From Anaerolineales bacterium (GTDB lineage Bacteria; Chloroflexota; Anaerolineae; Anaerolineales; E44-bin32): a DNA stretch of 40,192 nt. The notes beneath the pieces were generated by a model. That model was not told the DNA's origin. It ran no database searches and saw nothing but the letters and a program-made list of their open reading frames with translations. Every line of letters starts with the position of its first letter. Within the stretch, counting starts at the first letter, position 1. Positions 5,224-38,897 of the stretch are shown in pieces. The position numbers and the translations under genes were made by a program. The DNA is taken from contig JAZGCZ010000080.1 in NCBI GenBank assembly GCA_036477195.1, forward strand, positions 1 through 40,192. Direction: 5' to 3'.

Positions 5224-6485
5224 CCGTAGACGGACCGGTACTCACTTGGGAGGGCAAAGAGGCGGTCCTCCCGCCTCCAATTCGGCTTGTCCAGACCGCT
5301 GTCGTCCTTCCCAATGGTGCTCCGGAGGCAGCCGACCGGCGTTTGATCCAGGGCGAGAATCTGGGGGTCATGAGCGCGCTCCTGACGGACTACAAAGGCA
5401 AGATTGACCTGATCTATGCCGACCCTCCATTTCTATCTGGTAAGTCGTACCGTGTACGAACAGGCCATAGAGAAGATTCCCGACGACCAAATGACTGGAA
5501 GACGGCCGAAGGCTTTCGCGACGAATGGAACGATCGCGCGGAGTATCTCAACATGCTTTATTCTCGACTCCGCTTGATGCACACGTTGCTATCGCACACC
5601 GGAACGCTCTACCTGCATTTAGATTGGCACGCGGCGGGATACGCCCGTGTGCTTCTAGACGAGGTTTTTGGCCATGAGCGTCTGCTAAATGAGATCATCT
5701 GGACCTATCATGGACCTTCCCCCATCCGAACCGCGTTCAAGCGAAAACACGATACGATCTATGTCTATACGAAGTCCAAGGAGTACACTTTCAATGCCGA
5801 TGCAGTGCGCATTCCCTACAACGCATCGACGGTCAAGACCTTTTCCTCCGCAAAGGCCGGTTTCGGCAAACGCCCAGACCTGGAGCGTGGAAAAGTGCCT
5901 GAAGACTGGTGGTACTTCCCGGTCGTCGCACGAATGCACCGAGAGCGCACTGGCTACCCCACCCAGAAGCCCGAAGCACTATTGGAGCGGATTATCCTCG
6001 CCTCAAGCAATCCGGATGACCTCGTAGCAGACTTTTTCAGCGGGTCTGGGACCACTGTAGCGATCGCCAGACGATTGGGCCGTAGATGGCTGGCATGCGA
6101 CATCTCACCCATCGCAATAAACACGACTCGACGCCGGCTGCTACTCGAGCCAGGTGCGGGAGGCTTCGGCGTCTGGGTGGACAAAGCCAGCCAGGATCAG
6201 CATGCTCTGCATCCAAAGATTGATGTCCGGGCCAACAACTTGGATGTGCAGGCACAGCTCACAGATCTCGACCCAGAGGCTCTGACTGCTTTCGAATTGG
6301 ATTGGAATTTTGATGGCCAGCTGTTTCGCAGTGAAGCTCAATCAATAAGGGGCTGGCGGGAGGAGCGCATCAACATCCGGCTGGACCATTCGTATCCCGA
6401 GGCGGGCAGTTACGTGGTTGCTGCGCGCGCGGTGGACACTGAGGGAAAAACCGGCTTAGCCACTGAGCGAGTGCAGGTCGGTTAA
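5220..6485 (+). CDS. Site-specific DNA methyltransferase (N4-C/N6-A, beta-class, Mod-like) with C-terminal PKD-like extension
   Basis: DLIYADPPF (motif IV) precedes YPTQKPE and DFFSGSGTT (motif I). GTG start overlaps the upstream stop. Confidence 0.9.
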   Translation: MTVDGPVLTWEGKEAVLPPPIRLVQTAVVLPNGAPEAADRRLIQGENLGVMSALLTDYKGKIDLIYADPPFLSGKSYRVRTGHREDSRRPNDWKTAEGFRDEWNDRAEYLNMLYSRLRLMHTLLSHTGTLYLHLDWHAAGYARVLLDEVFGHERLLNEIIWTYHGPSPIRTAFKRKHDTIYVYTKSKEYTFNADAVRIPYNASTVKTFSSAKAGFGKRPDLERGKVPEDWWYFPVVARMHRERTGYPTQKPEALLERIILASSNPDDLVADFFSGSGTTVAIARRLGRRWLACDISPIAINTTRRRLLLEPGAGGFGVWVDKASQDQHALHPKIDVRANNLDVQAQLTDLDPEALTAFELDWNFDGQLFRSEAQSIRGWREERINIRLDHSYPEAGSYVVAARAVDTEGKTGLATERVQVG

Positions 6486-6550
6486 CGGCGCTCGCGATCG
6501 ACGTTGAGGGACAGTCCAGCTTCGTCATTGACCGAGTGCACGTCGGTTAT
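6421..6550 (+). repeat. Two 65-bp tandem copies of the methyltransferase 3' end
   Basis: 6421-6485 vs 6486-6550 align ungapped at 49/65 by manual count. Confidence 0.85.
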
Positions 6551-6579
6551 CAGCGAAGGTTACCTCTCTTAAAGAAATT

Positions 6580-6603
6580 GAGCGCACCCAATATTGTGCG
6601 CTC
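6580..6603. terminator. Hairpin between convergent genes, probable terminator
   Basis: GAGCGCAC-8 nt-GTGCGCTC; T-rich tail on the minus strand. Confidence 0.55.
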
Positions 6604-6626
6604 GTTGATTCATCAGAACGTTTCGC

Positions 6627-7292
6627 TCAGTTTGGAAGATCGAATCGGTATCCCATTCCTCGGATCGTATGTAGGAACACGGGCTTGGCGGGATCTAGCT
6701 CAATCGCGTGGCGCAGCCAGCTCATATGGACGTCCAGGGTGCGCGTATCTCCTGTGTAGTCGGTTAGCCAAACCTCTCTGATCAGTTTCTTCCGGGTCAG
6801 CAGCTTCCCAGGGTTGTGCATAAAAAGCTCAAGCAGTTTTGATTGCTTCGGTGTCAGTCTCGCTTCTCTGCCATTGACGCGAACTTTCCGCTGCGCCAAG
6901 TTCAGCTTGACCGGCCCAGCTTGAAGCACATAACGTTCATCTCCTGGAAGGAGCCGAATCACGCGGTTCACCAGCTTGCGAGGTGTGAATGGTTGAACAA
7001 GCGTTACGCTAGATCCGTTAGCAGGATCGGGACGAGTGCCACTTGGGGATATGAGGATGATGGGAATGCCATTCAGGCCCGCGCTTGCAGCCCGGGACAT
7101 CCGAGACCCACTCGTTCGCATCGAGGCAGCATCCAGTACTAACACATCCGGAGAGGTTTTGGCTGCAGCGCTGATTCCTTTATCGACTTTGTGATGGACG
7201 GTGACATCGAACCCTTTTTTCTCGAGCGCCGAGGCGAATGAGGGAGCAGTCGGGCGACCGCTCTCGATCAGTAGGATTTTCGCTATCGCCAT
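6627..7292 (-). CDS. OmpR/PhoB-family response regulator with atypical receiver
   Basis: Receiver-like N-terminus plus winged helix (LTPKQSKLLELF, VW..DY.GDTRTLDVHMSWLR, TIRGMGYRF). ATG 7292 lies downstream of a consensus promoter. Confidence 0.9.
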   Translation of the reverse strand: MAIAKILLIESGRPTAPSFASALEKKGFDVTVHHKVDKGISAAAKTSPDVLVLDAASMRTSGSRMSRAASAGLNGIPIILISPSGTRPDPANGSSVTLVQPFTPRKLVNRVIRLLPGDERYVLQAGPVKLNLAQRKVRVNGREARLTPKQSKLLELFMHNPGKLLTRKKLIREVWLTDYTGDTRTLDVHMSWLRHAIELDPAKPVFLHTIRGMGYRFDLPN

Positions 7293-7355
7293 TAAGTGAA
7301 ATCCCCAGCTAAAAGAACTCGGCAGCGGGGACTGTTCACGCTGCCTGTGATGGTC

Positions 7356-7384
7356 ATTATACATGAGCGACATTGGTGCATCAA
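7356..7384 (-). promoter_or_regulatory. Putative sigma70 promoter
   Basis: Minus strand TTGATG-17 bp-TATAAT upstream of the response regulator. Confidence 0.6.
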
Positions 7385-7391
7385 TGAGACT

Positions 7392-8477
7392 TTAGTTGGG
7401 CAGTTTGGAGTTGCCTAAATCCTTAAGTGAGTGTAATTGCGTGCTCGAGCGGATACGACTGATTCCGCCTCCCTCAGCGCGATCGCGGCCGCCGGTAAAA
7501 CCTCTGAACGGTCTTTCACCAAGCCGACCCATCACCGAGTCCGAGTAAGCCACCGGACCGGCCCATAAAGCCAATGGGCTGAGATCCTCGCGCAGCAAAT
7601 CCGAGCCATATTTCCATTCGCTGCGGATGAGCTTTCTGCCAATCTGTGCCGCGGCCTCTTCGATTTCACGCTCGCGCCCCGATGCGCGACCGCCCGCGCC
7701 CAACACCCAGACTGGAAGTCGAGAAGGGTCGTTGAAATACTCGAGGTGCGCCCATTCCTCGACTTCTTGCGACGACGCAGATTGGCCCGCAGCCTCAATA
7801 ACCTTCGCAGCAGCAAACATCGCTGCTCCGCGAACGGGCCCAGAGCCCAAGAATAAGATAGGTTGAGACGGGTCGATCTGCTGCGCGGCATCACGTCCGA
7901 TCGCCGACTCGCCCTCCCCCCATTCTGCTAAGGCCTCAGGTAATCCGCTCAGATAATTATCAATTTGATCTTGGAGGCCGCTATTAGCCAGCTGGGCTCC
8001 GATCGCATAACCGGCCATAAGCGCTGCGAGGTAGCTGATAAGCCCGGGTCCCTCAGGGTATTCAGGCAGGTCGAGAACAAATACTCCGTTGGCCATGGTG
8101 GCAAGGGTGCTATCTGGATCGGCCGTTATTCCGAGGGTCTGTGCCCCCAACTCCTGAGCAAGGCGCATCGCCTCGATGGTACGGGCGGTTTCCCCCGAAG
8201 CTGAAATTCCCGCCACCAAAAGACCTTTACCCACCGAGCGAGGAATCGTGTATCGTGCGGCTTCCATCGCGTGAAGACCCCGCGCGGTATGACCCGTCCA
8301 ATTCGCAAAAGCATAGGAGAGAGCATAGGCCGCGTGATGTGAGTCGCCGCAGCCGCAGAGAATGAGTTCCTGGAAGTCTACAGTGAGAACTCGAGCGGCG
8401 CGTTTTCTAGCTTGAGGCCAATAATCCTGGATGAAGTGGGCTGCTGATGCTGATTGAAGAGCTAGTGAAGTGGGCAA
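7392..8477 (-). CDS. Double SIS-domain protein (GlmS isomerase/FrlB-like sugar-phosphate isomerase or deglycase)
   Basis: LCGCGDSHHAA, GISASGETARTIEA, FLGSGP, AAKVIEAA, EEWAHLEYF. TTG start. Confidence 0.85.
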   Translation of the reverse strand: MPTSLALQSASAAHFIQDYWPQARKRAARVLTVDFQELILCGCGDSHHAAYALSYAFANWTGHTARGLHAMEAARYTIPRSVGKGLLVAGISASGETARTIEAMRLAQELGAQTLGITADPDSTLATMANGVFVLDLPEYPEGPGLISYLAALMAGYAIGAQLANSGLQDQIDNYLSGLPEALAEWGEGESAIGRDAAQQIDPSQPILFLGSGPVRGAAMFAAAKVIEAAGQSASSQEVEEWAHLEYFNDPSRLPVWVLGAGGRASGREREIEEAAAQIGRKLIRSEWKYGSDLLREDLSPLALWAGPVAYSDSVMGRLGERPFRGFTGGRDRAEGGGISRIRSSTQLHSLKDLGNSKLPN

Positions 8478-8494
8478 GTCAGTATAATGCGAGG

Positions 8495-13943: not shown

Positions 13944-14162
13944 ATGGCGACACGACAAGAAGCCGCGCTGTCGAAACTGGAAAGCAATCCGAGAGTCAGT
14001 AGGATCCGACTCATTGTGGCTCATGATGCCTGTCCCGCTTGTCGGCGGCAGGAGGGCGAATATGACAAGGGGCATGTCCCAGAACTTCCTACGCGGGGTT
14101 GCTCTCATCCCCTAAAATGCCGCTGCTTTTACGAACCCACGCTAACCGAAATCTTTCCATAA
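13944..14162 (+). CDS. Small Cys/His-rich putative zinc-binding protein
   Basis: DACPAC...GCSHPLKCRCFY; 72 aa, divergent from dinB. Confidence 0.7.
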   Translation: MATRQEAALSKLESNPRVSRIRLIVAHDACPACRRQEGEYDKGHVPELPTRGCSHPLKCRCFYEPTLTEIFP

Positions 14163-14361
14163 TCAACCTAGATTAAGCAGCCGATAACGAGCAATCTCGA
14201 GAGCTTCGGCTTCGAACGAAGTTCCAGAATCAACCTAGATCAAGCAGCCGATTATGAGCAGACTTCAGAACTTCGGCTTCGGACGAAATTCCAGAATCAA
14301 CCTAGATCAAGCAGCCGATTACGAGCAAACTTCAGAGCTTCGGCTTCGGACGAAATTTCGG
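14161..14361. repeat. Three 67-bp tandem copies of the tRNA nucleotidyltransferase 3' end
   Basis: Units start at 14161, 14228 and 14295 (AATCAACCTAGAT...). The third is the coding end; the others differ from it at about 9 and 5 positions. Confidence 0.95.
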
Positions 14362-15676
14362 CTTCCACCTGCTTCTCAGCAATTGCTGCCAGCAGTTCTC
14401 CAATGATGGGCCCTGGACTTAGATTGAGCGCAGTTGCAAGCTCGTCCCCACGTAATAGTTGGAGAGGGTTCACGATCTGGTCCCGCTTCTCGAACCAAGC
14501 CTCAAACAGCCTTCGAGCAACACTGACCTGTACTTCCCACAAGTCTTGGGTTGGCGATTGTGCGAACGAGATCGCCAGGTACAGCATAGCCGCCTCAATT
14601 CCAGCCGCTCCGCAGTCCCGAAAGTAACGGTGTGCCGCCAGATCGGTAATCCTGCTCTCCATGGCACGTGCTCGGACGCGACAACGCGTGATAGACCGGG
14701 CCAGTGCGGCTTCTGCCTCGCTATAGCGCAATTCACGCGCACTCAAGTATGCAGACTCATGAGCGTTCTCGGTTAAGCAGTGCAATGCTGCCAGGAATAG
14801 AATCTGACTGGAACGGTGACCGCCCGTCAGGGTCGAGCTGAGGTGATGCGCTAAGCTAGACCGATAACGGCCGAGCTTCAAGGAAAGTTCGGCGAGGGGA
14901 AGATTTCCCACCCGGTCCGGTATAAACCCACCCGCCACGGCCCCCATAAATCCAGCCAGTTTGTCGACAACGCTCAAAGTACGATCCCATACATTGGACG
15001 TCAGCGCGGCTTGCTTTGGCAAGACACTCTGCAACAATTCCAAACGGCGCATAAGCCGCATGGCGGTGGCTATCCACTCGGGCTCGAGCATTTTTGAAAG
15101 TTCATCTCGTCGTCGTTCTGCCGCACAATCAGACAGACTGTCGGCAGATTGGCGAACCTGCTCCTTAGTTTGATTTTCAAGCCGTAGCGTCAGGCTGGCG
15201 GACAGGCGGATCGCCCGGAGCGAACGAATGGCGTCTCTTTTGATCGAGTCGGTCGCACAAGCCCGAAGCACCTTGTCTTTGAGGTCCTGAAGGCCTTCCA
15301 GAGGGTCGACGAGTCGATCCGGGTCGTCCAGGCCAACTGCCATCGCATTCATGGAGAAGTCTCTGAGTCGAAGATCACCCTCTAGCGTCGGCGCCCTAAG
15401 GCGAGCAAAATCGAGGGTTCGCTGCTCGGGAAGCATCACCCGCGCGGTGTCTCGCTGCTCGTCCAGTACGTAGCAGGGAACTGCAAGCGCGTCCGCCAGT
15501 TCCCGTGCAAGGGAAATGGCGTCACCGTCCACGGCAAAATCGAGATCAGGTTGATCTAGTTCGAGGAAATGGTCGCGCAGCGCGCCACCGACCAGCCAAA
15601 CTTGTTGATCGTTGGATTTCGACCGAATGAGGGCGGCCAGGTCTGATTGCAGGAGTTGTTCAACTAGCGTCGGCAA
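14297..15676 (-). CDS. cca: Class II tRNA nucleotidyltransferase (probably CC-adding type) with degenerate HD domain
   Basis: VWLVGGALRD..DLDF, RDFSMNAMA, DP..G..DL, DAIRSLRAIR, C-terminal GP.IG.LL..I. Start estimated at TTG 15676 (the ORF-track start overlaps hpt by 128 nt). Confidence 0.85.
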   Translation of the reverse strand: MPTLVEQLLQSDLAALIRSKSNDQQVWLVGGALRDHFLELDQPDLDFAVDGDAISLARELADALAVPCYVLDEQRDTARVMLPEQRTLDFARLRAPTLEGDLRLRDFSMNAMAVGLDDPDRLVDPLEGLQDLKDKVLRACATDSIKRDAIRSLRAIRLSASLTLRLENQTKEQVRQSADSLSDCAAERRRDELSKMLEPEWIATAMRLMRRLELLQSVLPKQAALTSNVWDRTLSVVDKLAGFMGAVAGGFIPDRVGNLPLAELSLKLGRYRSSLAHHLSSTLTGGHRSSQILFLAALHCLTENAHESAYLSARELRYSEAEAALARSITRCRVRARAMESRITDLAAHRYFRDCGAAGIEAAMLYLAISFAQSPTQDLWEVQVSVARRLFEAWFEKRDQIVNPLQLLRGDELATALNLSPGPIIGELLAAIAEKQVEAEISSEAEALKFARNRLLDLG

Positions 15677-17598: not shown

Positions 17599-18132
17599 TT
17601 AATCTTTCTTTGCTGCCTTCGGTTTGCCTGTGCTTTTCTTCGTAGAAGCGCTTGTGCTTTTCTTCGTAGAAGCGCTTGTGCTTTTCTTTGTAGATGCGCT
17701 TGCGCTTTTCTTTGTTGCAGAACTTTCGCTCTTTTTAGACGAAGTCTTGCCCGCGGCAGTCGTCTTGGATGAGGTCGACTTGCTCTTAGTTTCAGTTTTC
17801 TTCTTTGGAGGTGCCGTCGGCAATCCAACACTTTCGATCTCTACATGGGTAAGCAGCTGCCGGTGTCCCTGCGTGCGTCGATAGCGCTGCTTGGGCTTGT
17901 ACTTGAAGACCGTGATCTTCTTGCCCTTCGGATGGTCCTGAATCTTTCCCTTAACGCTTGCGCCTTTGACGAACGGCGCGCCAACTTCCACTTTCTTCCC
18001 ATCGGAGACTAGCAAGACATCCTTGAAGACGACCTGTTTGCCAACTTCAAGCGACATTCGGTCTACCTCAATGAGGCTTCCCTCCTGCGCCAGATATTGC
18101 CTTCCGCTGTGTTCGACGATAGCGTATTTCAT
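17599..18132 (-). CDS. rplU: 50S ribosomal protein L21 with Lys/Ser/Thr-rich C-terminal tail
   Basis: [37 protein letters not shown], followed by about 75 aa of low-complexity basic tail. Confidence 0.97.
17631..17726 (-). repeat. 24-bp coding tandem repeat (about 4 units, KKSTSAST) in rplU tail
   Basis: Units at 17631, 17655, 17679 and 17703 (TGCTTTTCTTCGTAGAAGCGCTTG; first two identical). Confidence 0.9.
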
Positions 18133-27318: not shown

Positions 27319-27464
27319 ACGAAACTAATCTCTGGCAGCAAACCCGTCGAGTAGCGGACCGGCTGCTGAACTCGAAGCATGCAGTTGCGCTTTCAGGTGG
27401 CCTAATGGGAAACGTCGCCGAATTGCTCCCAATGGTTGTTGATGAGGTGCGTCTTGAGCAGTAG
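27315..27464 (+). pseudogene. 49-aa relic of an NAD-dependent deacylase (sirtuin/CobB) with in-frame internal deletion
   Basis: Manual translation MNETNLWQQTRRVADRLLNSKHAVALSG-GLMGNVAELLPMVVDEVRLEQ resembles the sirtuin N-terminus joined to its C-terminus. It overlaps both neighbours. Confidence 0.65.
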
Positions 27465-28778: not shown

Positions 28779-30464
28779 CTACCCTCTTCGCCCAAACTGG
28801 CGCTCCAGCGCGGCCACCGAAAGATGTACCATCGTGGGACGTCCATGCGGGCAAGTCCGAGGAGATGAGCTCTGTTCAAGGTCTAAAATCAACTGCCTTT
28901 GTTCCTCCAGAGACAATACCTGTCCCGCTTTGATGGCGGCCCGTTTACAAACGCGTGCGGCCAGCCGAGCTTCTTGCTCCGCCGCGAGTGGGGTTTCATC
29001 CTCTTCAAAATCCTCCACCACGGTTCTCAGCGCCCGCTCAGGAGACAAATTGGATACCAAGGCCGGCAAAGCTCTGACACGAAATGCGCGTGCGCCGAAC
29101 GGCTCAATCGCGAACCCCAACGATTGTAGTATTTTCAGATTGCTCTCCACCACTTCGGCCTCACCTTGGGTTAGTTCGACGGTCTCTGCCTGAAGCAGCC
29201 CCTGAGATTCGGGAAGCTCTGCTTCGACCTGCGCCATAAGCTTCTCAAATAGCACCCGCTCATGTGCCGCATGCTGGTCAATGAGATATATGCCGTCCGG
29301 CCCCTCTGCAACCAGGTAAGTGGCACCCACCTGGCCAACGGACCGGAGCATCGGGACAGTCATCGATCGCTGGGCAGGAGCCTCAATCCTCCGGTCTACA
29401 GTTTCAGAGCTGCCTGCGTTCGCCGTAATACGTTCGCCTGACCAAATGGATTCCATAGACAATGGTTGAACAGGCGATTGCCCGAGAAGCGTCGCGCGAA
29501 CGGCCCGCTGAACAATCGAAAACACCAACCCTGGATTCTCGAAGCGGATTTCTGATTTGGCGGGGTGCACATTGACGTCTACGCTCTCGGGCGGAGCCGT
29601 GATGAAAATCAGCGCGATCGGAAAACGCCCGACCATTAGAAAGGTGTGATAGGCCTGCGCAACGGCTGACCCCAAGCTAACATCTTGAATCCACCGCCCA
29701 TTGACGATAAGTGTGATTTCTCGTCGGTTGGAGCGATTAATGAACGGCGCGCCCGCGAAGCCGGAAACTGAGATCCCTTCACTGGATGCATTCGCTACAG
29801 GGATCATTTGCTGGGCCAATTCCAGGCCATAAATCTCCGCCAGCACCTCCAATGGATCTCCGCTTCCAGTTGTCTGGAGCCGGGTCCGGCCTTCGCTGAC
29901 ATATTCGAAGCGGCAGCTAGGGTATGCCATGGCATAGCGGGTTACAAGTCTCGAGATCCATCCGCGTTCCGTTGTATCCGTCTTCAAGAAGCGTCGCCTG
30001 GCCGGCACGTTGAAAAACAGGTCCTTCACTTGAACGGTCGTGCCATCAGGAACCCCAGCTTTTTCAGGCTCCCCCAATCGCCCTCCATCAACGGACAGAC
30101 GCGTGCCCGCCTGCTCCCCCTCTGCGCGTGTAGTCAAAACCATTCGGGATACCGCGCCTATAGAAGCCAGAGCTTCTCCACGAAAGCCCAAAGTGCTTAT
30201 CGAATGCAGGTCCGAGAGAGTTTCCACCTTCGATGTCGAATATCGCTCGACCGCGAGCTTGACCTGCTCTTGAGGGATTCCTGAGCCGTTGTCGGAAACT
30301 TCGATCAGGGACTTTCCCCCCTCTTTGATCTGTATGGCCAGCGTGGTAGCAGCGGCATCCAGGGAGTTTTCAATCAACTCTTTGACGATTGAGGATGGAC
30401 GTTCGACGACTTCGCCCGCCGCGATAGCAGATGAAACTTCGTCGGAGAGAAAGTGGATAGGCAT
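28779..30464 (-). CDS. mutL: DNA mismatch repair endonuclease MutL
   Basis: IAAGEVVERP, GFRGEALASI, DVNVHPAK, DQHAAHER, CPHGRP. Confidence 0.98.
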   Translation of the reverse strand: MPIHFLSDEVSSAIAAGEVVERPSSIVKELIENSLDAAATTLAIQIKEGGKSLIEVSDNGSGIPQEQVKLAVERYSTSKVETLSDLHSISTLGFRGEALASIGAVSRMVLTTRAEGEQAGTRLSVDGGRLGEPEKAGVPDGTTVQVKDLFFNVPARRRFLKTDTTERGWISRLVTRYAMAYPSCRFEYVSEGRTRLQTTGSGDPLEVLAEIYGLELAQQMIPVANASSEGISVSGFAGAPFINRSNRREITLIVNGRWIQDVSLGSAVAQAYHTFLMVGRFPIALIFITAPPESVDVNVHPAKSEIRFENPGLVFSIVQRAVRATLLGQSPVQPLSMESIWSGERITANAGSSETVDRRIEAPAQRSMTVPMLRSVGQVGATYLVAEGPDGIYLIDQHAAHERVLFEKLMAQVEAELPESQGLLQAETVELTQGEAEVVESNLKILQSLGFAIEPFGARAFRVRALPALVSNLSPERALRTVVEDFEEDETPLAAEQEARLAARVCKRAAIKAGQVLSLEEQRQLILDLEQSSSPRTCPHGRPTMVHLSVAALERQFGRRG

Positions 30465-30488
30465 GGCTAAGGATTATAAAGCTGCCGG

Positions 30489-30517
30489 TTGACCCGCATC
30501 CCGCGACTGCATATACT
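30489..30517 (+). promoter_or_regulatory. Putative sigma70 promoter; a divergent TATAAT for mutL lies at 30473-30478 (-)
   Basis: TTGACC-17 bp-TATACT. Confidence 0.6.
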
Positions 30518-30529
30518 CGCCTGATCAGA

Positions 30530-30781
30530 ATGGATTCCGTGCCCCAGTTGAGTCCCGCGGTCGTCGTCTGTTTAGCCATAGCTCTTGTTGTTGCCGTAAA
30601 TGGCGGATTAGTGCTGGCGGTACGTCGTGGCGGGGCACAGCGCCAAGTGAAGATGCTGCGCCGAGCAGCCAAGGCAGCTAGGAATCCGTGGGTTAATCAG
30701 AACAAAGAGATGAGTGAATTACGGGAAAGGGTCGCGCAGTTGAAGCCCGAGACCGGGAGCAGTTCTGAACCCGATGACTAA
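30530..30781 (+). CDS. Small membrane-anchored hypothetical protein
   Basis: N-terminal TM helix, ARNPW motif, short coiled coil (MSELRERVAQL). Confidence 0.75.
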   Translation: MDSVPQLSPAVVVCLAIALVVAVNGGLVLAVRRGGAQRQVKMLRRAAKAARNPWVNQNKEMSELRERVAQLKPETGSSSEPDD

Positions 30782-30855
30782 TATGAGCGAATTGAGGGAC
30801 CGCGTCGTGCGACCAGGGCCCAACAGCGGGAGCGGTTCTAAACCCGATGAATAAG
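30710..30855 (+). repeat. Two 73-bp tandem copies spanning a gene junction; creates mini-ORF 30774-30854
   Basis: 30710 vs 30783 align ungapped at 52/73. Mini-ORF MTNMSELRDRVVRPGPNSGSGSKPDE*. Confidence 0.85.
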
Positions 30856-31632
30856 CTGATGAATCTCCAGGATAGTGTCAAACTGATTCCCGAAGGCGAT
30901 GCCGTGCTTGCCCTAGGGGGTGTGACGAATTATCGGCGCCCAATGGCATTCGCTCTTGCCGCGCTCGCCAACCCACCTTCTCAGCCCGTGACATTGCTTA
31001 CCTTTACCGCCGGATTGGAAAGCGACCTCCTTGTCGGTGCGGGCCTCGTAGCTCGGGTCAGAACATGCTATTTCGGGCTGGAGGCATTCGGGCTGGCTCC
31101 GAACTTCACCCAGGCCTCGGATCTGGAGATCATCGAGGAGAGCGAGGCCAGCCTGGCGCTCGGGCTGCGCGCCACTCTCGCAAGAGTTGGCTTCATGCCC
31201 TCCTTAGCCTGGCAGGGCACGGACCTTTTGAAGCTGCGTCCAGATGTGAAGGAAATTAACGATCCGTACACCGGGGCAAAGCTGACAGCCTTCCCCGCCG
31301 TGGAGTGCGATCTCGCGGTCATCCATGCACTCCGGGCAGATCCTATGGGAAATACTCAGCTCGGACGAAATTGGGGGGTGGATCGGGAACTAGCTTACGC
31401 TGCCAAGAAAGTGCTCGTAACTGCGGAAGAGATTGTGCCGCGACTCGACCGAGCGGATATCGATGGGTCGATTGTCACCGCCGTAACCGAAGCGCCAAAA
31501 GGCGCTTGGCCTACTTCATGCCATCCAAACTACCCTTTGGATGGACAGGAATTCCTAAATTATGTGGACTTAGCCGGAACCGAAGGCTATGATGCGCTCA
31601 TTGAATCCTGGGCCGCTCGCCACCTGCACTAG
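30847..31632 (+). CDS. CoA-transferase subunit A (glutaconate CoA-transferase alpha-like)
   Basis: GDAVLALGG..RRPMA, DLLVGAG, DLAVIHA..AD..GN, VTAEEIV, GAWPTSC. Confidence 0.85.
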   Translation: MNKLMNLQDSVKLIPEGDAVLALGGVTNYRRPMAFALAALANPPSQPVTLLTFTAGLESDLLVGAGLVARVRTCYFGLEAFGLAPNFTQASDLEIIEESEASLALGLRATLARVGFMPSLAWQGTDLLKLRPDVKEINDPYTGAKLTAFPAVECDLAVIHALRADPMGNTQLGRNWGVDRELAYAAKKVLVTAEEIVPRLDRADIDGSIVTAVTEAPKGAWPTSCHPNYPLDGQEFLNYVDLAGTEGYDALIESWAARHLH

Positions 31633-31729
31633 CCTGCATTCCGCATTGCGCCTTTACCCCTTATTCTTCATCCTTCTCTTATGATCCTGTGATATTTTCA
31701 CCCGGTTCTTCTGCATCAGGAGCGTTCAC

Positions 31730-33001
31730 ATGAAATCCAACGCGTTGAAGATCGGCCTCGTCCTGGCCGTTGCGATCGGACTGACCGGCCTCGCGTTTAC
31801 ATCCGGGCTCGCGCTCGGTTACGTGGCTCCGCGAATTACTGCGGCCTCAGGGGAGGCGCCACCGATCGAGTTCTCTATCCCACAAATCGTTTCAAGAGAT
31901 GAGGTCACGCCCGAAGCTGATGTGGACCGCGATGAGTTGATCGCACCATTCTGGGAAGCCTGGGAGATCTTGCAGGACGACTATGTCGATCAGCCGTTGG
32001 ACAGCGAGACTCTGATGCGCGGCGCGATTCGTGGCCTGGTGGATTCGCTTGAAGATCCCCACACGTCCTATATGGATCCGGACGAGTTTCTCCAGGCTAA
32101 CCTTCCCCTGAACGGGGAGTACGAGGGCATAGGGGCCTGGGTCGATTCGGAAGCCGAATATCTGACGATAATTTCTACCATGCCCGGGTCTCCAGCGGAG
32201 AAAGCCGGGCTGCAGGCCGGCGATCAGGTGGTCGGTGTGAATGGCGAAGACGTTGTCGGCATGGATCCCAGTCTCGTCATTCGACAAGTGCTGGGCCCTG
32301 CTGGAACTCCAGTCAATCTCACAATCCGGCGAGAAGGGCTGGCGGAAGTATTTGATGTCGAAATTATTCGCGAGAAGATTGATCTTCCAAGTGTCCAAAG
32401 CGAGATGCTCGAAGACAACATCGCTTATGTGCGTCTCCTAAGTTTTGGCGCTGAATCGGCACAGGATCTCAATCGAGCATTGAGAGATTTACTGGCGGAC
32501 GATCCGGTGGGCCTCATTCTGGATCTACGTGGAAATGGGGGAGGCTTCTTGAATGCTGCTGTGGATGTGGCCTCAGAATTCATACCCGACGGCGTCATTT
32601 TGATCGAGCGATTTGGCGATGGCGAGGAAACCCTTTACCAAGCTAGATCGGGGGGAAGAGCGACTGAGATCGATATGGTGGTATTGATGAATGGTGGATC
32701 AGCATCGGCTTCAGAGATAGTGGCCGGCGCGATTCAGGATCACGGCCGTGGCCTCCTGGTCGGCGAGACTTCTTTCGGAAAAGGCTCTGTGCAGAACTGG
32801 GTTGAGCTCGCCGACAGTAAGGGTGCAATCCGCGTCACAATTGCGCGTTGGTATACTCCGGATGACCGGCTCATCCACGGCATCGGTCTGAGTCCTGACG
32901 TTGAGGTTCTAATTCCTGAATCTGGCCTCGAGGAAGGCGAAGATCCGCAGCTGGACGAGGCCATCAAGCTTCTATTGGGCGAGTCAGTCCCGAACCGTTA
33001 A
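31730..33001 (+). CDS. ctpA: S41 family C-terminal processing protease
   Basis: Membrane anchor, PDZ (GSPAEKAGL), LDLRGNGGG, SASASEIVAGAIQD, SFGKGSVQ. Confidence 0.95.
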   Translation: MKSNALKIGLVLAVAIGLTGLAFTSGLALGYVAPRITAASGEAPPIEFSIPQIVSRDEVTPEADVDRDELIAPFWEAWEILQDDYVDQPLDSETLMRGAIRGLVDSLEDPHTSYMDPDEFLQANLPLNGEYEGIGAWVDSEAEYLTIISTMPGSPAEKAGLQAGDQVVGVNGEDVVGMDPSLVIRQVLGPAGTPVNLTIRREGLAEVFDVEIIREKIDLPSVQSEMLEDNIAYVRLLSFGAESAQDLNRALRDLLADDPVGLILDLRGNGGGFLNAAVDVASEFIPDGVILIERFGDGEETLYQARSGGRATEIDMVVLMNGGSASASEIVAGAIQDHGRGLLVGETSFGKGSVQNWVELADSKGAIRVTIARWYTPDDRLIHGIGLSPDVEVLIPESGLEEGEDPQLDEAIKLLLGESVPNR

Positions 33002-33034
33002 GCTCCCCTAACACAACCTAGAGAGGGGGTTCCC

Positions 33035-34387
33035 ATGGATCCCTCACAAATCGACCTCGCGCTAGCGCGCATCCGAACTGCGCTGGAAGCAGGCGAAGTT
33101 CAGGCTGCAATCGACACCCTGACCGACCTACATCCCGTCGATCGGGCGGATGCATTTTCAGATCTAGATGACAAGGATCAGGCGGCTCTTTTGCCTCGAT
33201 TAGATCTGGAAGCAACTGCCGACCTGCTGGAGGAATTAGAAGACGAGCAAGCGGCGGCAGTGGCCGAGACCTTCGGCACGGAGCAGCTGGCGGACGTCCT
33301 GGACGAGATGGAGCCCGACGAAGCGGCGGATGTTCTGGGCGACCTCCCCACCGCTCGGGCGGAAGAGGCTCTGGCGGAGATGGAAGAGGCCGAAAACGTA
33401 CTTCCGCTCCTTCCTTTCGCCGATGAAACGGCCGGCGGACGGATGACGACCTCGTTCATAACGCTTCCAGTTGGATCCCGCGCCTCGGAAGCGATCCAAA
33501 CCCTTCGAAAGGTAGAACCTAGTTCGGAGGCGCCCTATTACCTCTATGTTGATGATGATACCGACCGACTAGTCGGGATTATTAGTCTCCGCGATTTAGT
33601 GATTGCCAAGCCGGAGTCAAAGCTTGAAACGTTCATGGACCCGGAGGTTATTTTCGCTCATACCTACGAAGATCAGGAAGAAGTGGCGCTGCGCATGGCA
33701 CGCTACGATCTGGCTGCCGTCCCGGTGGTAGATGATCGAGGGTCTGTTGTCGGAGTAATTACACATGACGATGTCATGGACGTTGTTGAGGAGGAGGCAA
33801 CCGAGGATATCTACCGATTGGCCAACGTCTCAGATTCCGACCTCTCAATTCACAGCTCGATCCTTCTCGCCATTCGAAAGCGGATACCATGGCTGTACCT
33901 GAGTGCGGTTACGGCACTTTTTGCGGCGTGGGTCGTCTCGAGATTCGAGACACTCATTGCAGAGGTGGCGATCCTGGCTGTGTTTCTCTCGGTAGTCGCC
34001 GGCCTGGGAGGCAATACTGCGACCCAGAGCCTGGCCATGATCGTCCGTGCCTTCGCTCTAGGCGAAATTGACATGCGTCGCGCATGGCGAACTGTTTTCA
34101 AGGAGGGCTTAACCGGACTCATCGCGGGCGTACTGGTGGGAACGGCCGTTGGATTCGCCGTCTGGCTTTGGCAGGGGAGCGTGGTGCTCGGCGTAGTTCT
34201 GGGATTGGCATTAATTGGCAACATGTTCGTCGCCGGCTTTGTTGGCGCCCTAATACCGATCTCACTAAGAGCTCTCAAGCTGGATCCTGCCCTGGCTTCG
34301 TCGGTCCTGGTAACTACCGTTACCGACAGCGTCGGCTTTGCCTTGTTCCTGACCTTATCTGCCCTCGCACTGTCAAACTTACGGTGA
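33035..34387 (+). CDS. mgtE: Magnesium transporter MgtE
   Basis: Acidic N domain, two CBS domains, KRIPWL, GGNTATQS, DPALASS..VTTVTD. Confidence 0.96.
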   Translation: MDPSQIDLALARIRTALEAGEVQAAIDTLTDLHPVDRADAFSDLDDKDQAALLPRLDLEATADLLEELEDEQAAAVAETFGTEQLADVLDEMEPDEAADVLGDLPTARAEEALAEMEEAENVLPLLPFADETAGGRMTTSFITLPVGSRASEAIQTLRKVEPSSEAPYYLYVDDDTDRLVGIISLRDLVIAKPESKLETFMDPEVIFAHTYEDQEEVALRMARYDLAAVPVVDDRGSVVGVITHDDVMDVVEEEATEDIYRLANVSDSDLSIHSSILLAIRKRIPWLYLSAVTALFAAWVVSRFETLIAEVAILAVFLSVVAGLGGNTATQSLAMIVRAFALGEIDMRRAWRTVFKEGLTGLIAGVLVGTAVGFAVWLWQGSVVLGVVLGLALIGNMFVAGFVGALIPISLRALKLDPALASSVLVTTVTDSVGFALFLTLSALALSNLR

Positions 34388-35040
34388 GGATCTTTCGCAG
34401 TCTCTTACAATTATTTTTCCGGCAGTTCTATACCACCCTGGCCTGGTCCTATGACATCGTGGCCAGGATTGTATCGGTGGGCCAATGGAACGATTGGGTT
34501 CGCTCAATCCTGGAGCCCTTTCCAGCCCGACCCATTCTCGAAATTGCTCATGGGCCTGGACACCTTCTTCTCGAACTCAATTTGCGGCGCGGAAATGCGT
34601 TCGGTGTCGATGCGTCGCGGCAAATGTGCCGTATGGCAAGTCACCGACTGAAGCGGAATGGCCATGTCTCAAAGGTGGTTCAAGGTCGAGCACAGGCCCT
34701 ACCCTTTCCACCGGAAACGTTCGCCACGCTGCTCAGTACTTTCCCGACCGAATTCATCCTGGACCCGGGCTCGCTTACAGAGGCACATCGAACACTGCAG
34801 CTCGAAGGACAATACCGGATCGTGCCGATGGCGGAAATTCGTGGCCCTAGCCTCCTCGATCGCATGGCCGGATGGCTATTTCGTGTGACCTGGCAGTACG
34901 TGGAATTGCCGACTTCATGGACCCAGCCAATCTCTGACGCGGGATTTCACGTACGCAGGGAGGATGTACTGTTAAGCCGCTCAAGGGTGATCCGAATTAT
35001 TGCGACCCGAGTGAAGCAGAAGGAAGGTCAAGTTGTCTGA
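34384..35040 (+). CDS. Class I SAM-dependent methyltransferase
   Basis: LAWSYDIVA, ILEIAHGPGHL, GVDASRQM, AQALPFP. GTG 34384 overlaps the mgtE stop. Confidence 0.85.
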   Translation: MRIFRSLLQLFFRQFYTTLAWSYDIVARIVSVGQWNDWVRSILEPFPARPILEIAHGPGHLLLELNLRRGNAFGVDASRQMCRMASHRLKRNGHVSKVVQGRAQALPFPPETFATLLSTFPTEFILDPGSLTEAHRTLQLEGQYRIVPMAEIRGPSLLDRMAGWLFRVTWQYVELPTSWTQPISDAGFHVRREDVLLSRSRVIRIIATRVKQKEGQVV

Positions 35041-35150
35041 AACCAGCCAATCCGGCGACCTGGCATTGTTCCTCGCGAGGGGTGTGAAGCAGATGGAGGT
35101 CCAAGTTGCCTGACACCAGCCAAGCCGGCGACCTGGCAATGCTCGTCGGG
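35011..35150 (+). repeat. Two tandem copies (73-bp period) spanning the methyltransferase/trmI junction; creates mini-ORF 35033-35113
   Basis: 35011 vs 35084 align at about 56/67. Mini-ORF MSETSQSGDLALFLARGVKQMEVQVA*. Confidence 0.9.
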
Positions 35151-35891
35151 TCTAACGGCAAACAGTTCATTATTCAGCTTAATTTGGGTCAGCAGCTCCA
35201 AACGCATCGTGGCGTGTTGCGGCACGAGGATCTTATCGGCCTGTCCTGGGGCACGACTATTACGAGCCACACTGGCAAAGACTTCCTGATGCTGGAGCCA
35301 TCCCTACGCGACGTCTTACTTCACACTAAGCGCCTGTCCCAAATTATCTACCCCAAAGAAATTGGCTATATCCTGCTTCGACTTTCAATTGGCCCCGGCG
35401 TCGAAGTGGTGGAGTCCGGGACTGGTTCGGGCGCCCTTACAACCGCTTTCGCTTGGGCGGTGGGATCAGAGGGTACGGTCTATTCCTATGATCGGCGAGA
35501 AGACATGCTGGAGCTCGCCAGCCGCAATCTAGAACGTGTGGGGCTGCGTGAAATAGTCGAGTTAAGACACTTAGATATCGAGGCCGGTTTTGATGAGCAA
35601 GGGGTCAGATCCGTATTTTTGGATTTGCCCCATGCTCACCGCTACCTGCGTCAGGCACGCGAGGCTCTAGCAGATGGGGGAACTTTGGGCGCGATAATGC
35701 CAACTGCCAATCAGGTCAGTCGGTTCCTGTCAGAACTTGAGGGGCAGTCTTTCGGGCTGCCCGAGGTGTGTGAAATCATGCTCCGGTTTTACAAGTCGAA
35801 TCCGCAGCGACTCCGCCCAACCGATCGCATGGTAGCCCACACCGGGTATTTGGTATTTGCGCGCGCGGTAAGAGGCACGTCGCATGGTTGA
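35106..35891 (+). CDS. trmI: tRNA (adenine-58-N1)-methyltransferase
   Basis: THRG...QIIYPKEIG, VESGTGSGALT, FLDLP, RMVAHTGYL. TTG start with GGAGG. Confidence 0.92.
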   Translation: MPDTSQAGDLAMLVGSNGKQFIIQLNLGQQLQTHRGVLRHEDLIGLSWGTTITSHTGKDFLMLEPSLRDVLLHTKRLSQIIYPKEIGYILLRLSIGPGVEVVESGTGSGALTTAFAWAVGSEGTVYSYDRREDMLELASRNLERVGLREIVELRHLDIEAGFDEQGVRSVFLDLPHAHRYLRQAREALADGGTLGAIMPTANQVSRFLSELEGQSFGLPEVCEIMLRFYKSNPQRLRPTDRMVAHTGYLVFARAVRGTSHG

Positions 35892-36471
35892 TCTGATAGA
35901 ACGATTGGAGCGATCTCTTAGTGAACTGGATGCCAAGGTTGAAACAGAATGGGAGGCAACGCCCGCCGCGGTTCTGATACCTCTATATCAAGAAGATGGG
36001 GACTGGAATTTGCTCTTTACTCGCCGCACCGACTCGGTAGATGTACATGCCGGACAAGTTTCGTTTCCAGGGGGCCGGATTGAGGATTCCGACGTGTCGG
36101 CCGTGGCGGCCGCACTTCGGGAGGCCCAAGAGGAGATCGGGTTGGACCCGGCCGATGTAGAAATGCTTGGACAGCTTAATCCGATCTTTACGGTCACACA
36201 GTTCTTGGTCACCCCGGTGGTTGGAGTGATTCCGTGGCCTTATCCGCTGGCCTCCAACCCAACCGAGGTTGCCCACACTTTTGGCGTTCCAATCAAATGG
36301 CTATCAGACCCAAATAACGTCGAGGTTCGGGATCGACAGCCCCTAGTTCCCGGGCGCAACATTCAGGTCTACTATTTCAAGGAATTTGATGGTGAGACGA
36401 TCTGGGGCGTCACCGCAAGGATCACAGTTAATTTTCTGCAGATGTTGGATGCTGCCAATCCGCCGACTTAA
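35884..36471 (+). CDS. Nudix hydrolase, CoA pyrophosphatase family
   Basis: PAAVLIPL, LFTRR, HAGQVSFPGG, ALREAQEEIGL, IWGVTA. Confidence 0.93.
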   Translation: MVDLIERLERSLSELDAKVETEWEATPAAVLIPLYQEDGDWNLLFTRRTDSVDVHAGQVSFPGGRIEDSDVSAVAAALREAQEEIGLDPADVEMLGQLNPIFTVTQFLVTPVVGVIPWPYPLASNPTEVAHTFGVPIKWLSDPNNVEVRDRQPLVPGRNIQVYYFKEFDGETIWGVTARITVNFLQMLDAANPPT

Positions 36472-36546
36472 TACATCATGATTGGCGGCCCAGCCTCCAG
36501 ATATTGTGGTGATATTTAGTTTTCGAGATCTCTATCGGAAAGTGTC

Positions 36547-37233
36547 TTAGCTCTCGCTATCTGGTTCGGGCTCGGCCTCTGAATCAGTTTCTTCCTCGGC
36601 CTCTGCCTCCTCATCCAATTCCTCGCCTTCGGCCAGCTCCTCGAGCTCTTCTTCCTCGACGATCTCCTCAATAATCTCTTCTTCCTGATAGATCGGGCGC
36701 GCAATTAATTCATCTGGCTCCGTCAATATGGTGACGCCCTCTCCAGGGAAGAGATCGGAGACACTGATTGAATCGTCAAGATTCTCAAGGGTCTCAAGGT
36801 TGGCCGTAATTCTGTCTGGCAGGTCCGCGGGTAGAGCCTCCACCTCGACCGTAGATACGCCCGTGAGTAGAACGACCCCAGCCTCTTCGGCTGCCGGGGG
36901 TTCGCCGATTAATTCAATGGGTACCTGTGCTCGGATAGTCTCGTCCATGGCGACTTTGAGGAAATCGACATGCAGGTAATCGCCGCGAATCACGTCCCGC
37001 TGCACCCCTCGAACCAGGACCGAATGTGATTCGTCGTCAAAGTCGAGCTCGATCAAGGTTGAGCTGCTTGCGCGTGTAAGAATCCGTGAAGCTTCACGCC
37101 CGTCTAGTTCAATAGGCAAGGATACAATGCCTGCACCGTAAAGTACTCCAGGAAGCTGACCATTTTGCCGCAAGGTCTTGACCCGCTTTCCGATCAGCGT
37201 CCGCTTCTGTACTTTAAGTTTAGGAGTATCCAT
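36547..37233 (-). CDS. rplY: 50S ribosomal protein L25/Ctc (long form, acidic tail)
   Basis: LRQNGQLPGVLYG, VQRD...HVDF, VPIELIG, VEALPADLP. ATG 37233 follows GAGGTG. Confidence 0.95.
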   Translation of the reverse strand: MDTPKLKVQKRTLIGKRVKTLRQNGQLPGVLYGAGIVSLPIELDGREASRILTRASSSTLIELDFDDESHSVLVRGVQRDVIRGDYLHVDFLKVAMDETIRAQVPIELIGEPPAAEEAGVVLLTGVSTVEVEALPADLPDRITANLETLENLDDSISVSDLFPGEGVTILTEPDELIARPIYQEEEIIEEIVEEEELEELAEGEELDEEAEAEEETDSEAEPEPDSES

Positions 37234-37243
37234 CAATCGCACC

Positions 37244-37720
37244 TCAATTCTCGCTTCGCTTGCTCAAGAGACGACCCAACAGCATGAAAAGCCCGCCTAT
37301 AACTCCGGCTGCGAGACCTGCCAGCAGCGCGCCCCGAGTATCAAGATAAGTTTGCACGTCGCCATGAACCTCCCGAGCCACAAATATCAGGCTTGGACTG
37401 TTGCTCACCCGTAGCTCCCGCCCCACAATGAGGCCGGTCCTTGAGTCTTCAAGCTCTGTAGTGTCAGCCAGTACCAGCCCAGTTGTAGAGCCGAGCAACG
37501 AAATCTGCTCTCCGCGTACTCCAACTGCTCCGGATTGGCGCATCTCAATTCTACCGCCTTGAATGTTCCAGGCACCGCCCTGACGCATTTCAATATGATC
37601 AGCGGAAATGGATCGGGCTCCGCCCTGCGTGATTAATACTTCTTCTGCCTCGACGTGGTCTATTGTTCCGCCATCGAGGTTAATAGTTTCGGCATCTAAG
37701 TGTTCGTCCTTTTGATCCAT
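37244..37720 (-). CDS. Hypothetical protein with 15-aa beta-solenoid-like repeats and C-terminal TM helix
   Basis: Periodic I-x-M-x-Q-G-G-A repeats; hydrophobic C-terminus followed by basic residues. Confidence 0.75.
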   Translation of the reverse strand: MDQKDEHLDAETINLDGGTIDHVEAEEVLITQGGARSISADHIEMRQGGAWNIQGGRIEMRQSGAVGVRGEQISLLGSTTGLVLADTTELEDSRTGLIVGRELRVSNSPSLIFVAREVHGDVQTYLDTRGALLAGLAAGVIGGLFMLLGRLLSKRSEN

Positions 37721-37800
37721 CCCGATTCTCTTTCTAAGGTCCCAATGATCTCGCCGTGACTAAAATGCGCCAATCGGTCGGAATATGAATGTGAGTGGCA

Positions 37801-37837
37801 GAAAAATTGGGCCGTCCCTGCTTCCAGGACGCCCAAC
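37801..37837 (-). terminator. Terminator-like hairpin immediately after a promoter
   Basis: Minus strand TTGGGCGTCC-TGGAAGCA-GGGACGGCCCAA-TTTTTC. Confidence 0.55.
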
Positions 37838-37845
37838 GCCCGGCG

Positions 37846-37874
37846 ATTCTAACGGGGAAGGTGGGCCTCGTCAA
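37846..37874 (-). promoter_or_regulatory. Putative sigma70 promoter of hypothetical-rplY operon
   Basis: Minus strand TTGACG-17 bp-TAGAAT. Confidence 0.65.
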
Positions 37875-38037
37875 CATGATAGACTCGTCAGTTGCGTTAT
37901 GGTTTTGAGAATTAACTCACTCGAAATCAGCCCATCGGGCGGAAACCTGCGGCCCGATAGTTTCGAATGACGGCTGATCGGACACAGCTCGTCGAGCGGG
38001 GGAACGTGCAGCTAGGCAGTTTTGACGGACGGCTGAT

Positions 38038-38691
38038 TTGAAAATCTTGTTGGTGGTCTGGGTTTCGGCCACCACCTTGTTGCCAGTGCTGCGCCAGGTG
38101 CCTGGATTTGCCGAAATCACGGAGCCGGGACAAGGCCAGGCGGTGACTGGGATCGTCACGATTTTCGGAACCGCCACTCACCCAGCATTTCAGAGCTTTG
38201 ATCTAGCATTCAGTTTCGACCCAGACCCCACCGAAACCTGGTTCCCAATGGGCGAGGCGCTAGACACACCAGTCGTAGATAGTCGATTAGCGATCTGGGA
38301 CACCACCCAAATTACCGACGGTGTGTACCGTCTTCGACTGAGGGTACATGTCGACAGAGCTCCGCCGTTCGAAACCGTGGTCAATGGAATCCGCGTCAGA
38401 AACTATACGCCTACAGAGACTCCACCGCCTGAAGCCGAAACCGCTGAGCCCACAGAGGTGGCAGCGACCCCCGTCGCTGTCATCGAGCAGGAGCCTGAGG
38501 CACCCGTTGAGACACCCAGCCGATTTTCTTCTGCTCTTCGAGCTGGCATCTTCTTGGGACTTTTCCTCACGCTGGCAACTGCAGCGTATGTGCGCCTGGC
38601 GCCGAGAGTGCGCGCCTATTCCGGATATCTGCGCATGCGGCAGCTACACCGGCGGCAGGACCGCGCCCGACATGGCGGCAAGCGTGAGTAA
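38038..38691 (+). CDS. Hypothetical secreted/membrane protein with Ig-like domain
   Basis: Signal-like N-terminus, ITEP..GQAVTG.V.IFGTA, LAIWDTT.ITDG.Y.LRLRV, P/T/E linker, C-terminal TM helix. Confidence 0.8.
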   Translation: MKILLVVWVSATTLLPVLRQVPGFAEITEPGQGQAVTGIVTIFGTATHPAFQSFDLAFSFDPDPTETWFPMGEALDTPVVDSRLAIWDTTQITDGVYRLRLRVHVDRAPPFETVVNGIRVRNYTPTETPPPEAETAEPTEVAATPVAVIEQEPEAPVETPSRFSSALRAGIFLGLFLTLATAAYVRLAPRVRAYSGYLRMRQLHRRQDRARHGGKRE

Positions 38692-38897
38692 GCACCCGAT
38701 TATCGGATTGGGGAATCCCGGTCAACAAAGAGGCGGCAAGCGTGAGTAAGCACTCGATTATCGGATTGGGGAATCCCGGTCAGCAAAGAGGCGGCAAGCG
38801 TGAGTAAGCACCTCATTATCGGATTGGGGAACCCCGGTCAGCAAAGAGGCTGCGAGAGTGAGTAAGCATCTGATTATCGGATTGGGGAACCCCGGAC
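38674..38897 (+). repeat. Four 58-bp tandem copies of the junction upstream of pth; three mini-ORFs (38684-38749, 38742-38807, 38800-38865)
   Basis: Units at 38674, 38732, 38790 and 38848 (GGCGGCAAGCGTGAGTAAGCAC...GGATTGGGGAATCCCGG). Confidence 0.97.

Follow-up and report, generated by a model that had tools for sequence, protein, structure and literature searches.

Tandem units at operon junctions are known from mycobacterial interspersed repetitive units (MIRUs), whose 40-100 bp units contain open reading frames (ORFs) that overlap the neighbouring genes and are considered a ribosome relay, with which insertion does little harm to downstream expression (PMC12548453, PMC3184786; for these and all other published systems, we rely on the portions of the sources available to us). 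Where adjacent genes are coupled through termination and reinitiation, this coupling is nearly lost once stop and start are spaced by ~20 nt (PMC10666635). Furthermore, a survey of thousands of genomes reports that tandem repeats are rarer inside prokaryotic genes and enriched just outside of them, which it reads as greater tolerance or a regulatory role (PMC12418385). Here, we analyze short tandem duplications in a stretch of 40,192 nt (contig JAZGCZ010000080.1 of assembly GCA_036477195.1; hereafter the window) and in the draft genome holding it (G000; 1.707 Mb, 224 contigs, 52.5% complete). G000 represents an uncultured marine-sediment Anaerolineales bacterium, and the stretch is partly present in public runs, mostly metagenomes from marine or other sediment, and in no RNA run. 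The closest published analogue of its arrays is the mycobacterial MIRU (MIRU-VNTR, for variable number of tandem repeats; Supply et al. 1997). We consider it probable that the arrays are local tandem duplications, and not mobile elements or assembly echoes, which are in excess in this lineage and have then been filtered by purifying selection.

The six short tandem duplications that the original prediction had listed for the window were all found in place, with periods of 65, 67, 73, 73, 59, and 58 bp. By a seed-and-extend repeat finder, which picks up all six, the copies are 74-95% identical (about 70-95% had been claimed), and Tandem Repeats Finder (TRF) picks up the two multi-copy arrays among them (67 bp and 58 bp). 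The 65-bp unit occurs twice (6423..6552, + strand) at the 3' end of a DNA methylase gene (5220..6485; Pfam N6_N4_Mtase), with 75% identity over 65 nt between the copies starting at 6423 and 6488; the real stop is in copy 1 (6423-6487), and copy 2 (6488-6552) is a decaying copy of the gene tail. Similarly, 3.2 copies of the 67-bp unit (14155..14370, - strand; 14155-14357, period 67, 3.0 copies, and 89% matches by TRF) lie at the 3' end of a CCA-adding enzyme gene (14297..15676/15787). The true tail with its TGA stop is found in the copy at 14289-14355, and two added copies follow downstream (14155-14288); the copies at 14155, 14222, and 14289 are spaced by 67 nt and share 87% and 84% identity. 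Three further arrays span junctions of co-directional genes on the + strand. Two 73-bp copies (30701..30859; hereafter the 30745 array, with copies at 30745 and 30818 spaced by 73 nt and 81% identical over 42 nt) join an 83-aa conserved ORF (30530..30781) to a CoA-transferase-like gene (30847..31632), and two other 73-bp copies (35002..35147; copies at 35002 and 35075, 73 nt, 81% identity) join a methyltransferase gene (34384..35040) to trmI (35106..35891). At the third junction, 3.8 copies of the 58-bp unit (38674..38905; 38674-38895, period 58, 3.8 copies, and 92% by TRF) lie between a 217-aa ORF without Pfam match (38038..38691) and pth (38858..39427), the copies at 38674, 38732, and 38790 being spaced by 58 nt and 95% and 84% identical. 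The weakest of the six is an old, partial pair of 59-bp copies (37941..38037, + strand) in a divergent intergenic region, immediately upstream of the gene starting at 38038/38053. Its copies at 37941 and 38000 (spacing 59) match at 74% over just 38 nt (28/38) and score under the threshold of our genome-wide detector; the pair is nonetheless beyond chance, as none of 30 shuffled versions of the window reached such a match at offsets of 30-130.

The 3 co-directional junctions overlap by 8 nt (ATGACTAA/ATGAATAA, TTGTCTGA/TTGCCTGA, and GTGAGTAA), and the sum of unit and overlap is 81, 81, and 66, just as the original prediction had it. Its claim that the extra copies are stop-free ORFs was borne out, too: all five bridge ORFs, which lie on the + strand, translate without internal stops. 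They comprise an ORF of 26 codons at 30774-30854, with an 8-nt overlap at either end, another of 26 codons with a TTG start at 35033-35113, and three of 21 codons each at 38684-38749, 38742-38807, and 38800-38865, which extend from GTGAGTAA to GTGAGTAA. Every one of the five re-forms the 8-nt overlap at both ends.

The relatives found by scanning a collection are metagenome-assembled genomes labelled Anaerolineae, Anaerolineales, or Chloroflexota. BLAST diagonals between the window and syntenic contigs of the same-genus genome G003 are shifted by 68, 134, 73, ~73, 62, and 171 nt at the six sites, so that all six arrays are insertions of ~(n-1) x period relative to G003; relative to G002, the shift is 134 nt at the 67-bp array and ~75 nt at the trmI junction. 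The site of the 67-bp array has a single copy in G002, G012, and G003, in line with a shift of 134 = 2 x 67, and the trmI junction is unduplicated in G002, G012, G003, G005, and G010. For the pth junction, one copy with the same 8-nt overlap (GTGAGTGA, GTGAGTAA, GTGACTAA, or ATGAGTGA) was found in seven same-genus relatives, and ATGA in four more distant ones of the same genus. The 30745 array is older, since it occurs in G000, G012, and G002, with a single copy in G005, G010, and G003. Five of the six window arrays are missing from every closest relative compared at their sites, and the sixth is common only to G000 and the two nearest species. The 8-nt overlap is ancestral at both junctions that were aligned, i.e., pth (seven relatives) and 30745 (G005, G010, and G003). 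Across 36 kb of synteny with the window, G002 has no insertion of 40-150 nt of its own; a single insertion of ~640 nt (G002:C202:39834-40475 vs. window 27391-27408) is located between its response-regulator and histidine-kinase genes.

Contigs from four runs of four studies were aligned to window positions 30001-40000 as a check by independent assemblies. A contig of run X1, which stems from another study, covers 30473-31977 with 23 differences and without gaps and thus spans the 30745 array. A second X1 contig joins 38670 to 38784 and thereby skips 113 nt (~two 58-bp units) at the pth array, which may reflect copy-number variation or a collapse of near-identical copies by the assembler. The 35002 array is bridged by none of the listed contig pieces from the four runs. 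All six duplications are real and derived.

Genome-wide, arrays were identified with an ungapped detector (periods 25-200, identity of at least 66% over one unit, z of at least 7), of whose output the subset with periods of 30-130 was counted. G000 contains 161 such arrays in 1.707 Mb, corresponding to 94 per Mb. Within the genus, the same detector found 4 arrays in G003 (317 kb scanned), 7 in G012 (400 kb), and 2 in G002 (100 kb); G018, which belongs to the same family, yielded 4 in 400 kb, and G030, of the same order, 3 in 400 kb. These five relatives range from 7.5 to 20 arrays per Mb and amount to 12.4 per Mb when pooled, a density ratio of 7.6 (p = 3e-27). Since six arrays per 40 kb fit the genome density of 94 per Mb (Poisson P = 0.18), the window is typical and G000 itself is the outlier. 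Together with the absence of most window arrays from relatives, this agrees with the predicted lineage-specific duplication process, and the predicted size restriction is likewise evident. The period distribution is unimodal (19, 32, 40, 34, and 18 arrays in the bins from 30-40 to 70-80), no array in G000 has a period above 130 bp within the detector range of 25-200, and the 135 arrays that are not internal to genes have a median period of 58 bp, with 75% at 40-75 bp. About two copies are present in 95 arrays, three in 46, and four in 17, while two arrays round to 5 copies and one rounds to 1. Copy identities lie mostly at 0.75-0.95 and exceed 0.95 in just 10 arrays (maximum 0.968); between individual copies, they span 70-97%, with zero identical pairs.

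An all-against-all blastn of the 161 units returned 1 related pair, and 4 units match elsewhere in the genome. The units are mutually unrelated and, therefore, represent local duplications instead of a mobile repeat family. The sole related pair (C36:119-197 and C98:170-248; 32-bp period, 90% over 31 nt) lies near contig ends, has further matches in the genome, and could represent either a dispersed repeat of small size or a single locus that the assembly has split. Overall, arrays are not enriched at contig ends (17/161 vs. 7.9% of the genome, p = 0.13).

With respect to their position, 49 of the 161 arrays are intergenic, 42 include one stop, 26 are internal to a gene, 19 include a start plus a stop, 18 include one start, and 7 include two convergent stops. 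This classification depends on a self-written crude codon and dicodon gene caller with visible errors, e.g., the gene for ribosomal protein L21 in the window was missed. The claim that such repeats all sit at gene boundaries thus held for the six in the window and not for the genome, given the 49 purely intergenic and 26 internal arrays. Internal arrays are depleted (26/161 vs. ~81% expected for random units of matching lengths), and their period is divisible by three in 25 of 26 cases (p = 2e-11). For the 135 non-internal arrays, we used a tolerance null under which every unit not wholly within a gene survives. Its predicted shares are 56% for intergenic, 18% for stop, 18% for start, 7% for start-plus-stop, and 0.5% for stop-plus-stop arrays, compared to observed shares of 36, 31, 13, 14, and 5% (chi-square p = 2e-19). 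Stop-containing arrays account for 68/135, about twice the 25% under the null (p = 3e-10), while start-only arrays are not enriched over it; an excess of boundary repeats above intergenic tolerance, which the original prediction required, was accordingly seen for gene ends and not for gene starts alone. The copy nearer to the gene holds the real stop in 39 of the 42 stop-class arrays, as is required if a gene tail was duplicated, and 19 of 19 start-plus-stop arrays are at co-directional junctions. Selection is visible in the mod-3 filter on internal arrays, in the stop excess, and in the frame bias at junctions described below.

The seven arrays with two stops belong to convergent gene pairs on contigs C8, C49, C84 (two), C175, C186, and C209 and are ~10 times as frequent as expected under tolerance; in 6 of 7, the original stops are -4 to +13 nt apart, and in the seventh, the genes overlap by ~41 nt. 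The internal class is exemplified within the window by a 24-bp in-frame repeat of five copies (17602..17745, - strand) within the ribosomal protein L21 gene (17599..18132), in the part for its C-terminal extension; here, the window is 88 nt longer than G003.

For the junctions, an extra copy was considered in relay frame if (overlap + period) mod 3 = 0, for which chance predicts one third. The manually inspected set comprised 22 arrays: the 19 start-plus-stop arrays, the 30745 array, which had originally been classed as start since its small upstream ORF scored low, and the arrays on C23 and C202 from neighbouring classes. In frame were the three window arrays and those on C21, C23, C90, C142, C153, C158, C177, C181 (44 bp), C188, C211, C217, and C220, and out of frame those on C5, C39, C71, C112, C164, C181 (33 bp), and C202. 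This amounts to 15/22 in frame (p = 9e-4) and to 12/19 (p = 0.007) without the three window arrays that prompted the hypothesis. An automatic rule based on gene-caller coordinates gave 13/20 (p = 0.004) and, outside the window, 10/17 (p = 0.03); it differs from the manual curation by C177, whose start was moved by hand, and by the two added cases. Hence, the predicted frame bias persists outside the window by either count. Among the out-of-frame arrays, four have a period divisible by three, which places the copied start in frame with the real one. Two of these four, at C39:9146-9287 (45 bp) and C164:14453-14617 (48/96 bp), repeat the N-terminal part of lipoprotein signal peptides in frame. 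None of 47 lower-scoring arrays (z 5-7) lies at a co-directional junction.

The 8-nt overlap did not turn out to be a rule. At the 22 junctions, the overlap is 4 nt in nine cases, 8 nt in five, and 1 nt in four, with 10, 11, and 17 nt and a 1-nt spacer occurring once each. Throughout the genome, 8-nt overlaps were counted for 20 of 1031 co-directional pairs, as compared to 114 with 4 nt, and an enrichment of 5/22 junction arrays over ~10% of overlapping pairs is unconvincing. That all three co-directional junctions of the window overlap by 8 nt thus looks coincidental, and the 8-nt overlap has no special role.

We propose that duplications accumulated in this species lineage at several-fold the rate, or retention, of its relatives and that purifying selection acted as a filter. 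From the geometry of the arrays, a duplication within a gene would survive only with a length that is a multiple of three, and one that spans a stop would leave the gene intact and add a decaying copy of its tail downstream. A duplication of a stop/start junction would likewise leave both genes intact while pushing them one or more units apart, and the survivors would mainly be those for which unit plus overlap is a multiple of three. In these, the extra copy would form a short ORF from the copied downstream start to the copied upstream stop, and a ribosome that completes the upstream gene could be relayed from each stop to the start overlapping it until it reaches the real downstream gene. 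Because coupling is nearly lost at ~20 nt, a gap of 58-73 nt without such a relay is expected to uncouple the genes. We infer that selection underlies the frame bias at junctions, acting either to preserve termination-reinitiation coupling or against an ORF that runs past the real start, and we hold the part concerning coupling with moderate confidence.

Several observations weigh against this reading. The stop excess may partly stem from slower decay of the coding-constrained copy and from genes that the caller missed, which would make the null's intergenic share too large. The frame test outside the window is moderately significant and relies on a crude gene caller with manual curation: C177 flips from out of frame to in frame once its start is reassigned, C21 is in frame geometrically with its copied start lost, C23 has lost one copied start, and C202 is ambiguous and was tallied as out of frame. 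On C5 and C112, both out of frame, the mini-ORF ends on the real start via another stop; stops near starts are therefore common, and the relay geometry is partly a matter of arithmetic. Moreover, codon retention at junctions adds little, since plain gene ends keep the copied stop almost as well (60 of 66 extra copies) and plain gene starts keep the copied start in 15 of 23. The 30745 bridge ORF is intact with 26 codons in G000 and, after an in-frame deletion of 3 nt, with 22 codons in G012, whereas in G002, a TAG that follows 9 codons and a deletion of 1 nt break it; the evidence that bridge ORFs are maintained is weak. A past burst of duplication is also inseparable from assembly collapse of young arrays, as the draft is 52.5% complete and copies of >97% identity are missing. 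Taken together, the modest automatic count outside the window, the 60/66 retained stops, the broken ORF in G002, and the 7 of 22 junction arrays that are out of frame would suit an explanation in which gene integrity is the sole filter, the frame bias arises by chance or from choices made in the count, and coupling is irrelevant. We regard this as unlikely, though it deserves more weight than any other alternative: one third in frame is expected, compared to 15/22 overall and 12/19 outside the window, the class in which a mini-ORF would overrun the real start in a third frame is the rarest (3/22, two of which still stop on the start), and nothing like this mod-3 skew is seen in the periods of plain stop and intergenic arrays.

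The remaining alternatives are less probable still. The fragmented and incomplete draft and the lack of a contig piece from the four public runs that bridges the 35002 array would be in line with artefacts of metagenome assembly or binning, e.g., strain variants placed in tandem; however, copies differ by 3-30%, reading frames are respected (25/26 internal periods divisible by three), the 30745 array recurs in the assemblies of two other species and in a contig from a different study, and contig ends are not enriched, which makes an artefact extremely improbable. Just as implausible is a mobile interspersed family, such as MIRUs, repetitive extragenic palindromes (REPs), or miniature inverted-repeat transposable elements (MITEs), inserting at junctions. 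While unit sizes of ~40-100 bp, operon-junction sites, and ORFs overlapping the flanks fit the available descriptions of MIRUs (PMC12548453, PMC3184786), the one related pair and four outside matches among 161 units do not, and each unit copies the adjacent gene tail or head at a site that relatives keep as a single copy. Adaptive arrays, be it as contingency-type variable expression spacers or as new small-protein genes, are very improbable, if somewhat less so. For the pth array, whose copies 1-3 share ~95% identity, a contig from another study lacks 113 nt, which could be copy-number variation, but that k=31 contig may have collapsed near-identical copies, and most arrays are diverged (identities mostly 0.75-0.95) and hence not actively slipping. 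The suggestion of tunable expression spacers is not supported, with a hint of copy-number variation from one array only. That of new small proteins fares no better, as the 30745 bridge ORF, the only one traceable across species, visibly diverges and breaks in one of three species: its sequence diverges beyond the flanking genes (~60% nucleotide identity between G000 and G012, estimated by eye and not computed), it is interrupted in G002, and no conserved bridge peptide was seen in the 30745 alignment across species. In annotations, neither the bridge ORFs nor the tail copies should be listed as genes.

Candidate causes of the excess were checked in the gene content, which yielded no lead. Flap-nuclease defects have reportedly been linked to such duplications (Tishkoff 1997, Nagata 2002). 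A loss of the Pol I 5' nuclease was rejected, since G000, like its relatives, retains the domain in full length (188 bits), and so was the loss of a stand-alone 5' nuclease paralogue, which is missing in G000 but also in the low-density G003. Ku was found in 0 of 15 genomes. For MutS, G000 yielded only a MutS2-type MutS_V match (123 bits), while most relatives also have a MutS1-type match (~283 bits); the missing MutS1-type match says little for a draft that is 52.5% complete. The mutL gene is present and intact in the window (28779..30464; Pfam). Two-copy arrays are ragged at their ends, with an excess of at least 6 nt in 31% (5% simulated) and a deficit of at least 6 nt in 28% (12% simulated), and a clean signature of microhomology was not seen at unit ends. 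Compared to matched gene-end controls, the units do not fold any better (-0.242 vs. -0.227 kcal/mol/nt, p = 0.21), and no shared motif was found at unit boundaries by eye.

The genes around the arrays are ordinary housekeeping genes according to Pfam, and scans of the window for Rfam families and tRNAs gave no matches. The ribosomal protein L31 (16857-17330, - strand) has a C-terminal domain matching the C-terminal domain of RNA polymerase alpha (Pfam). Between the convergent methylase and regulator genes (6481-6621), the window is 134 nt longer than G002, of which the 65-bp copy makes up half; the remainder includes, by eye, a hairpin with an 8-bp stem at ~6580-6603, a candidate two-way terminator. 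G003 also carries this extra stretch.

More speculatively, and with doubts on our side, the excess might reflect a heritable hyper-duplication state (~30-100 bp, mode 50-60 bp, several-fold above background) that arose after the split from the nearest sampled congeners and recurs in unrelated uncultured lineages. If so, such genomes would be natural mutagenesis experiments, providing an in vivo demonstration of selection on the stop/start hand-over of ribosomes and a pointer to a repair or replication function. In any case, an ~8-fold load of minisatellite-type duplications compared to congeners offers a handle on the mutational process, and the surviving arrays record what a bacterial genome tolerates, namely in-frame insertions, copied tails, and junction copies that keep the relay. 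Should the frame bias hold in larger data, it would be evidence, on evolutionary grounds, for a role of short stop/start overlaps in expression and would imply that MIRU-like relay ORFs can arise via plain local duplication without the need for a mobile element.

In the literature, supplements excluded, we found neither a species-level excess of local gene-boundary duplications nor a description of a frame filter at junctions. Compared to the average picture of the prokaryotic survey, as far as the available part of PMC12418385 conveys it, G000 stands out by ~8 times the array density of its congeners, a narrow range of periods, and an explicit frame filter. With Borg elements (PMC9879509, in the part available), it shares many independent local tandem repeats per replicon that are largely absent from relatives; however, Borg repeats are described there as recent, fast-evolving, and encoding disordered protein regions, whereas G000 has mostly two to three diverged copies at gene ends of a bacterial chromosome. 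As to the variable number that characterizes VNTRs, one X1 contig skips 113 nt at the 58-bp array, possibly through assembler collapse, and the other arrays are diverged.

The resemblance to MIRUs, again judged by the accessible portions of the sources, lies in tandem units of 40-100 bp between operon genes and in a small ORF that overlaps the flanking stop and start, a geometry found in the five window bridge ORFs and, regarding the frame, in 15 of 22 junction arrays genome-wide. Unlike MIRUs, which form a related, apparently mobile family at ~40-50 loci, the unit is unique in 159 of the 161 arrays of G000. Furthermore, G000 units copy the local junction or gene end, with the unduplicated site retained in relatives, and their overlaps are 8, 4, 1 nt, and others and thus not limited to 4 nt. 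Finally, the three window junctions and both ends of each bridge ORF show the short stop/start overlap of coupled pairs. As in the termination-reinitiation coupling studied by Huber et al., the ancestral junctions of G000 are such overlaps, and the bridge ORFs re-form them; yet, the published cases, to the extent covered by the consulted parts of PMC10666635 and PMC6728339, are single junctions, whereas G000 contains chains of two to four that originate from duplication.

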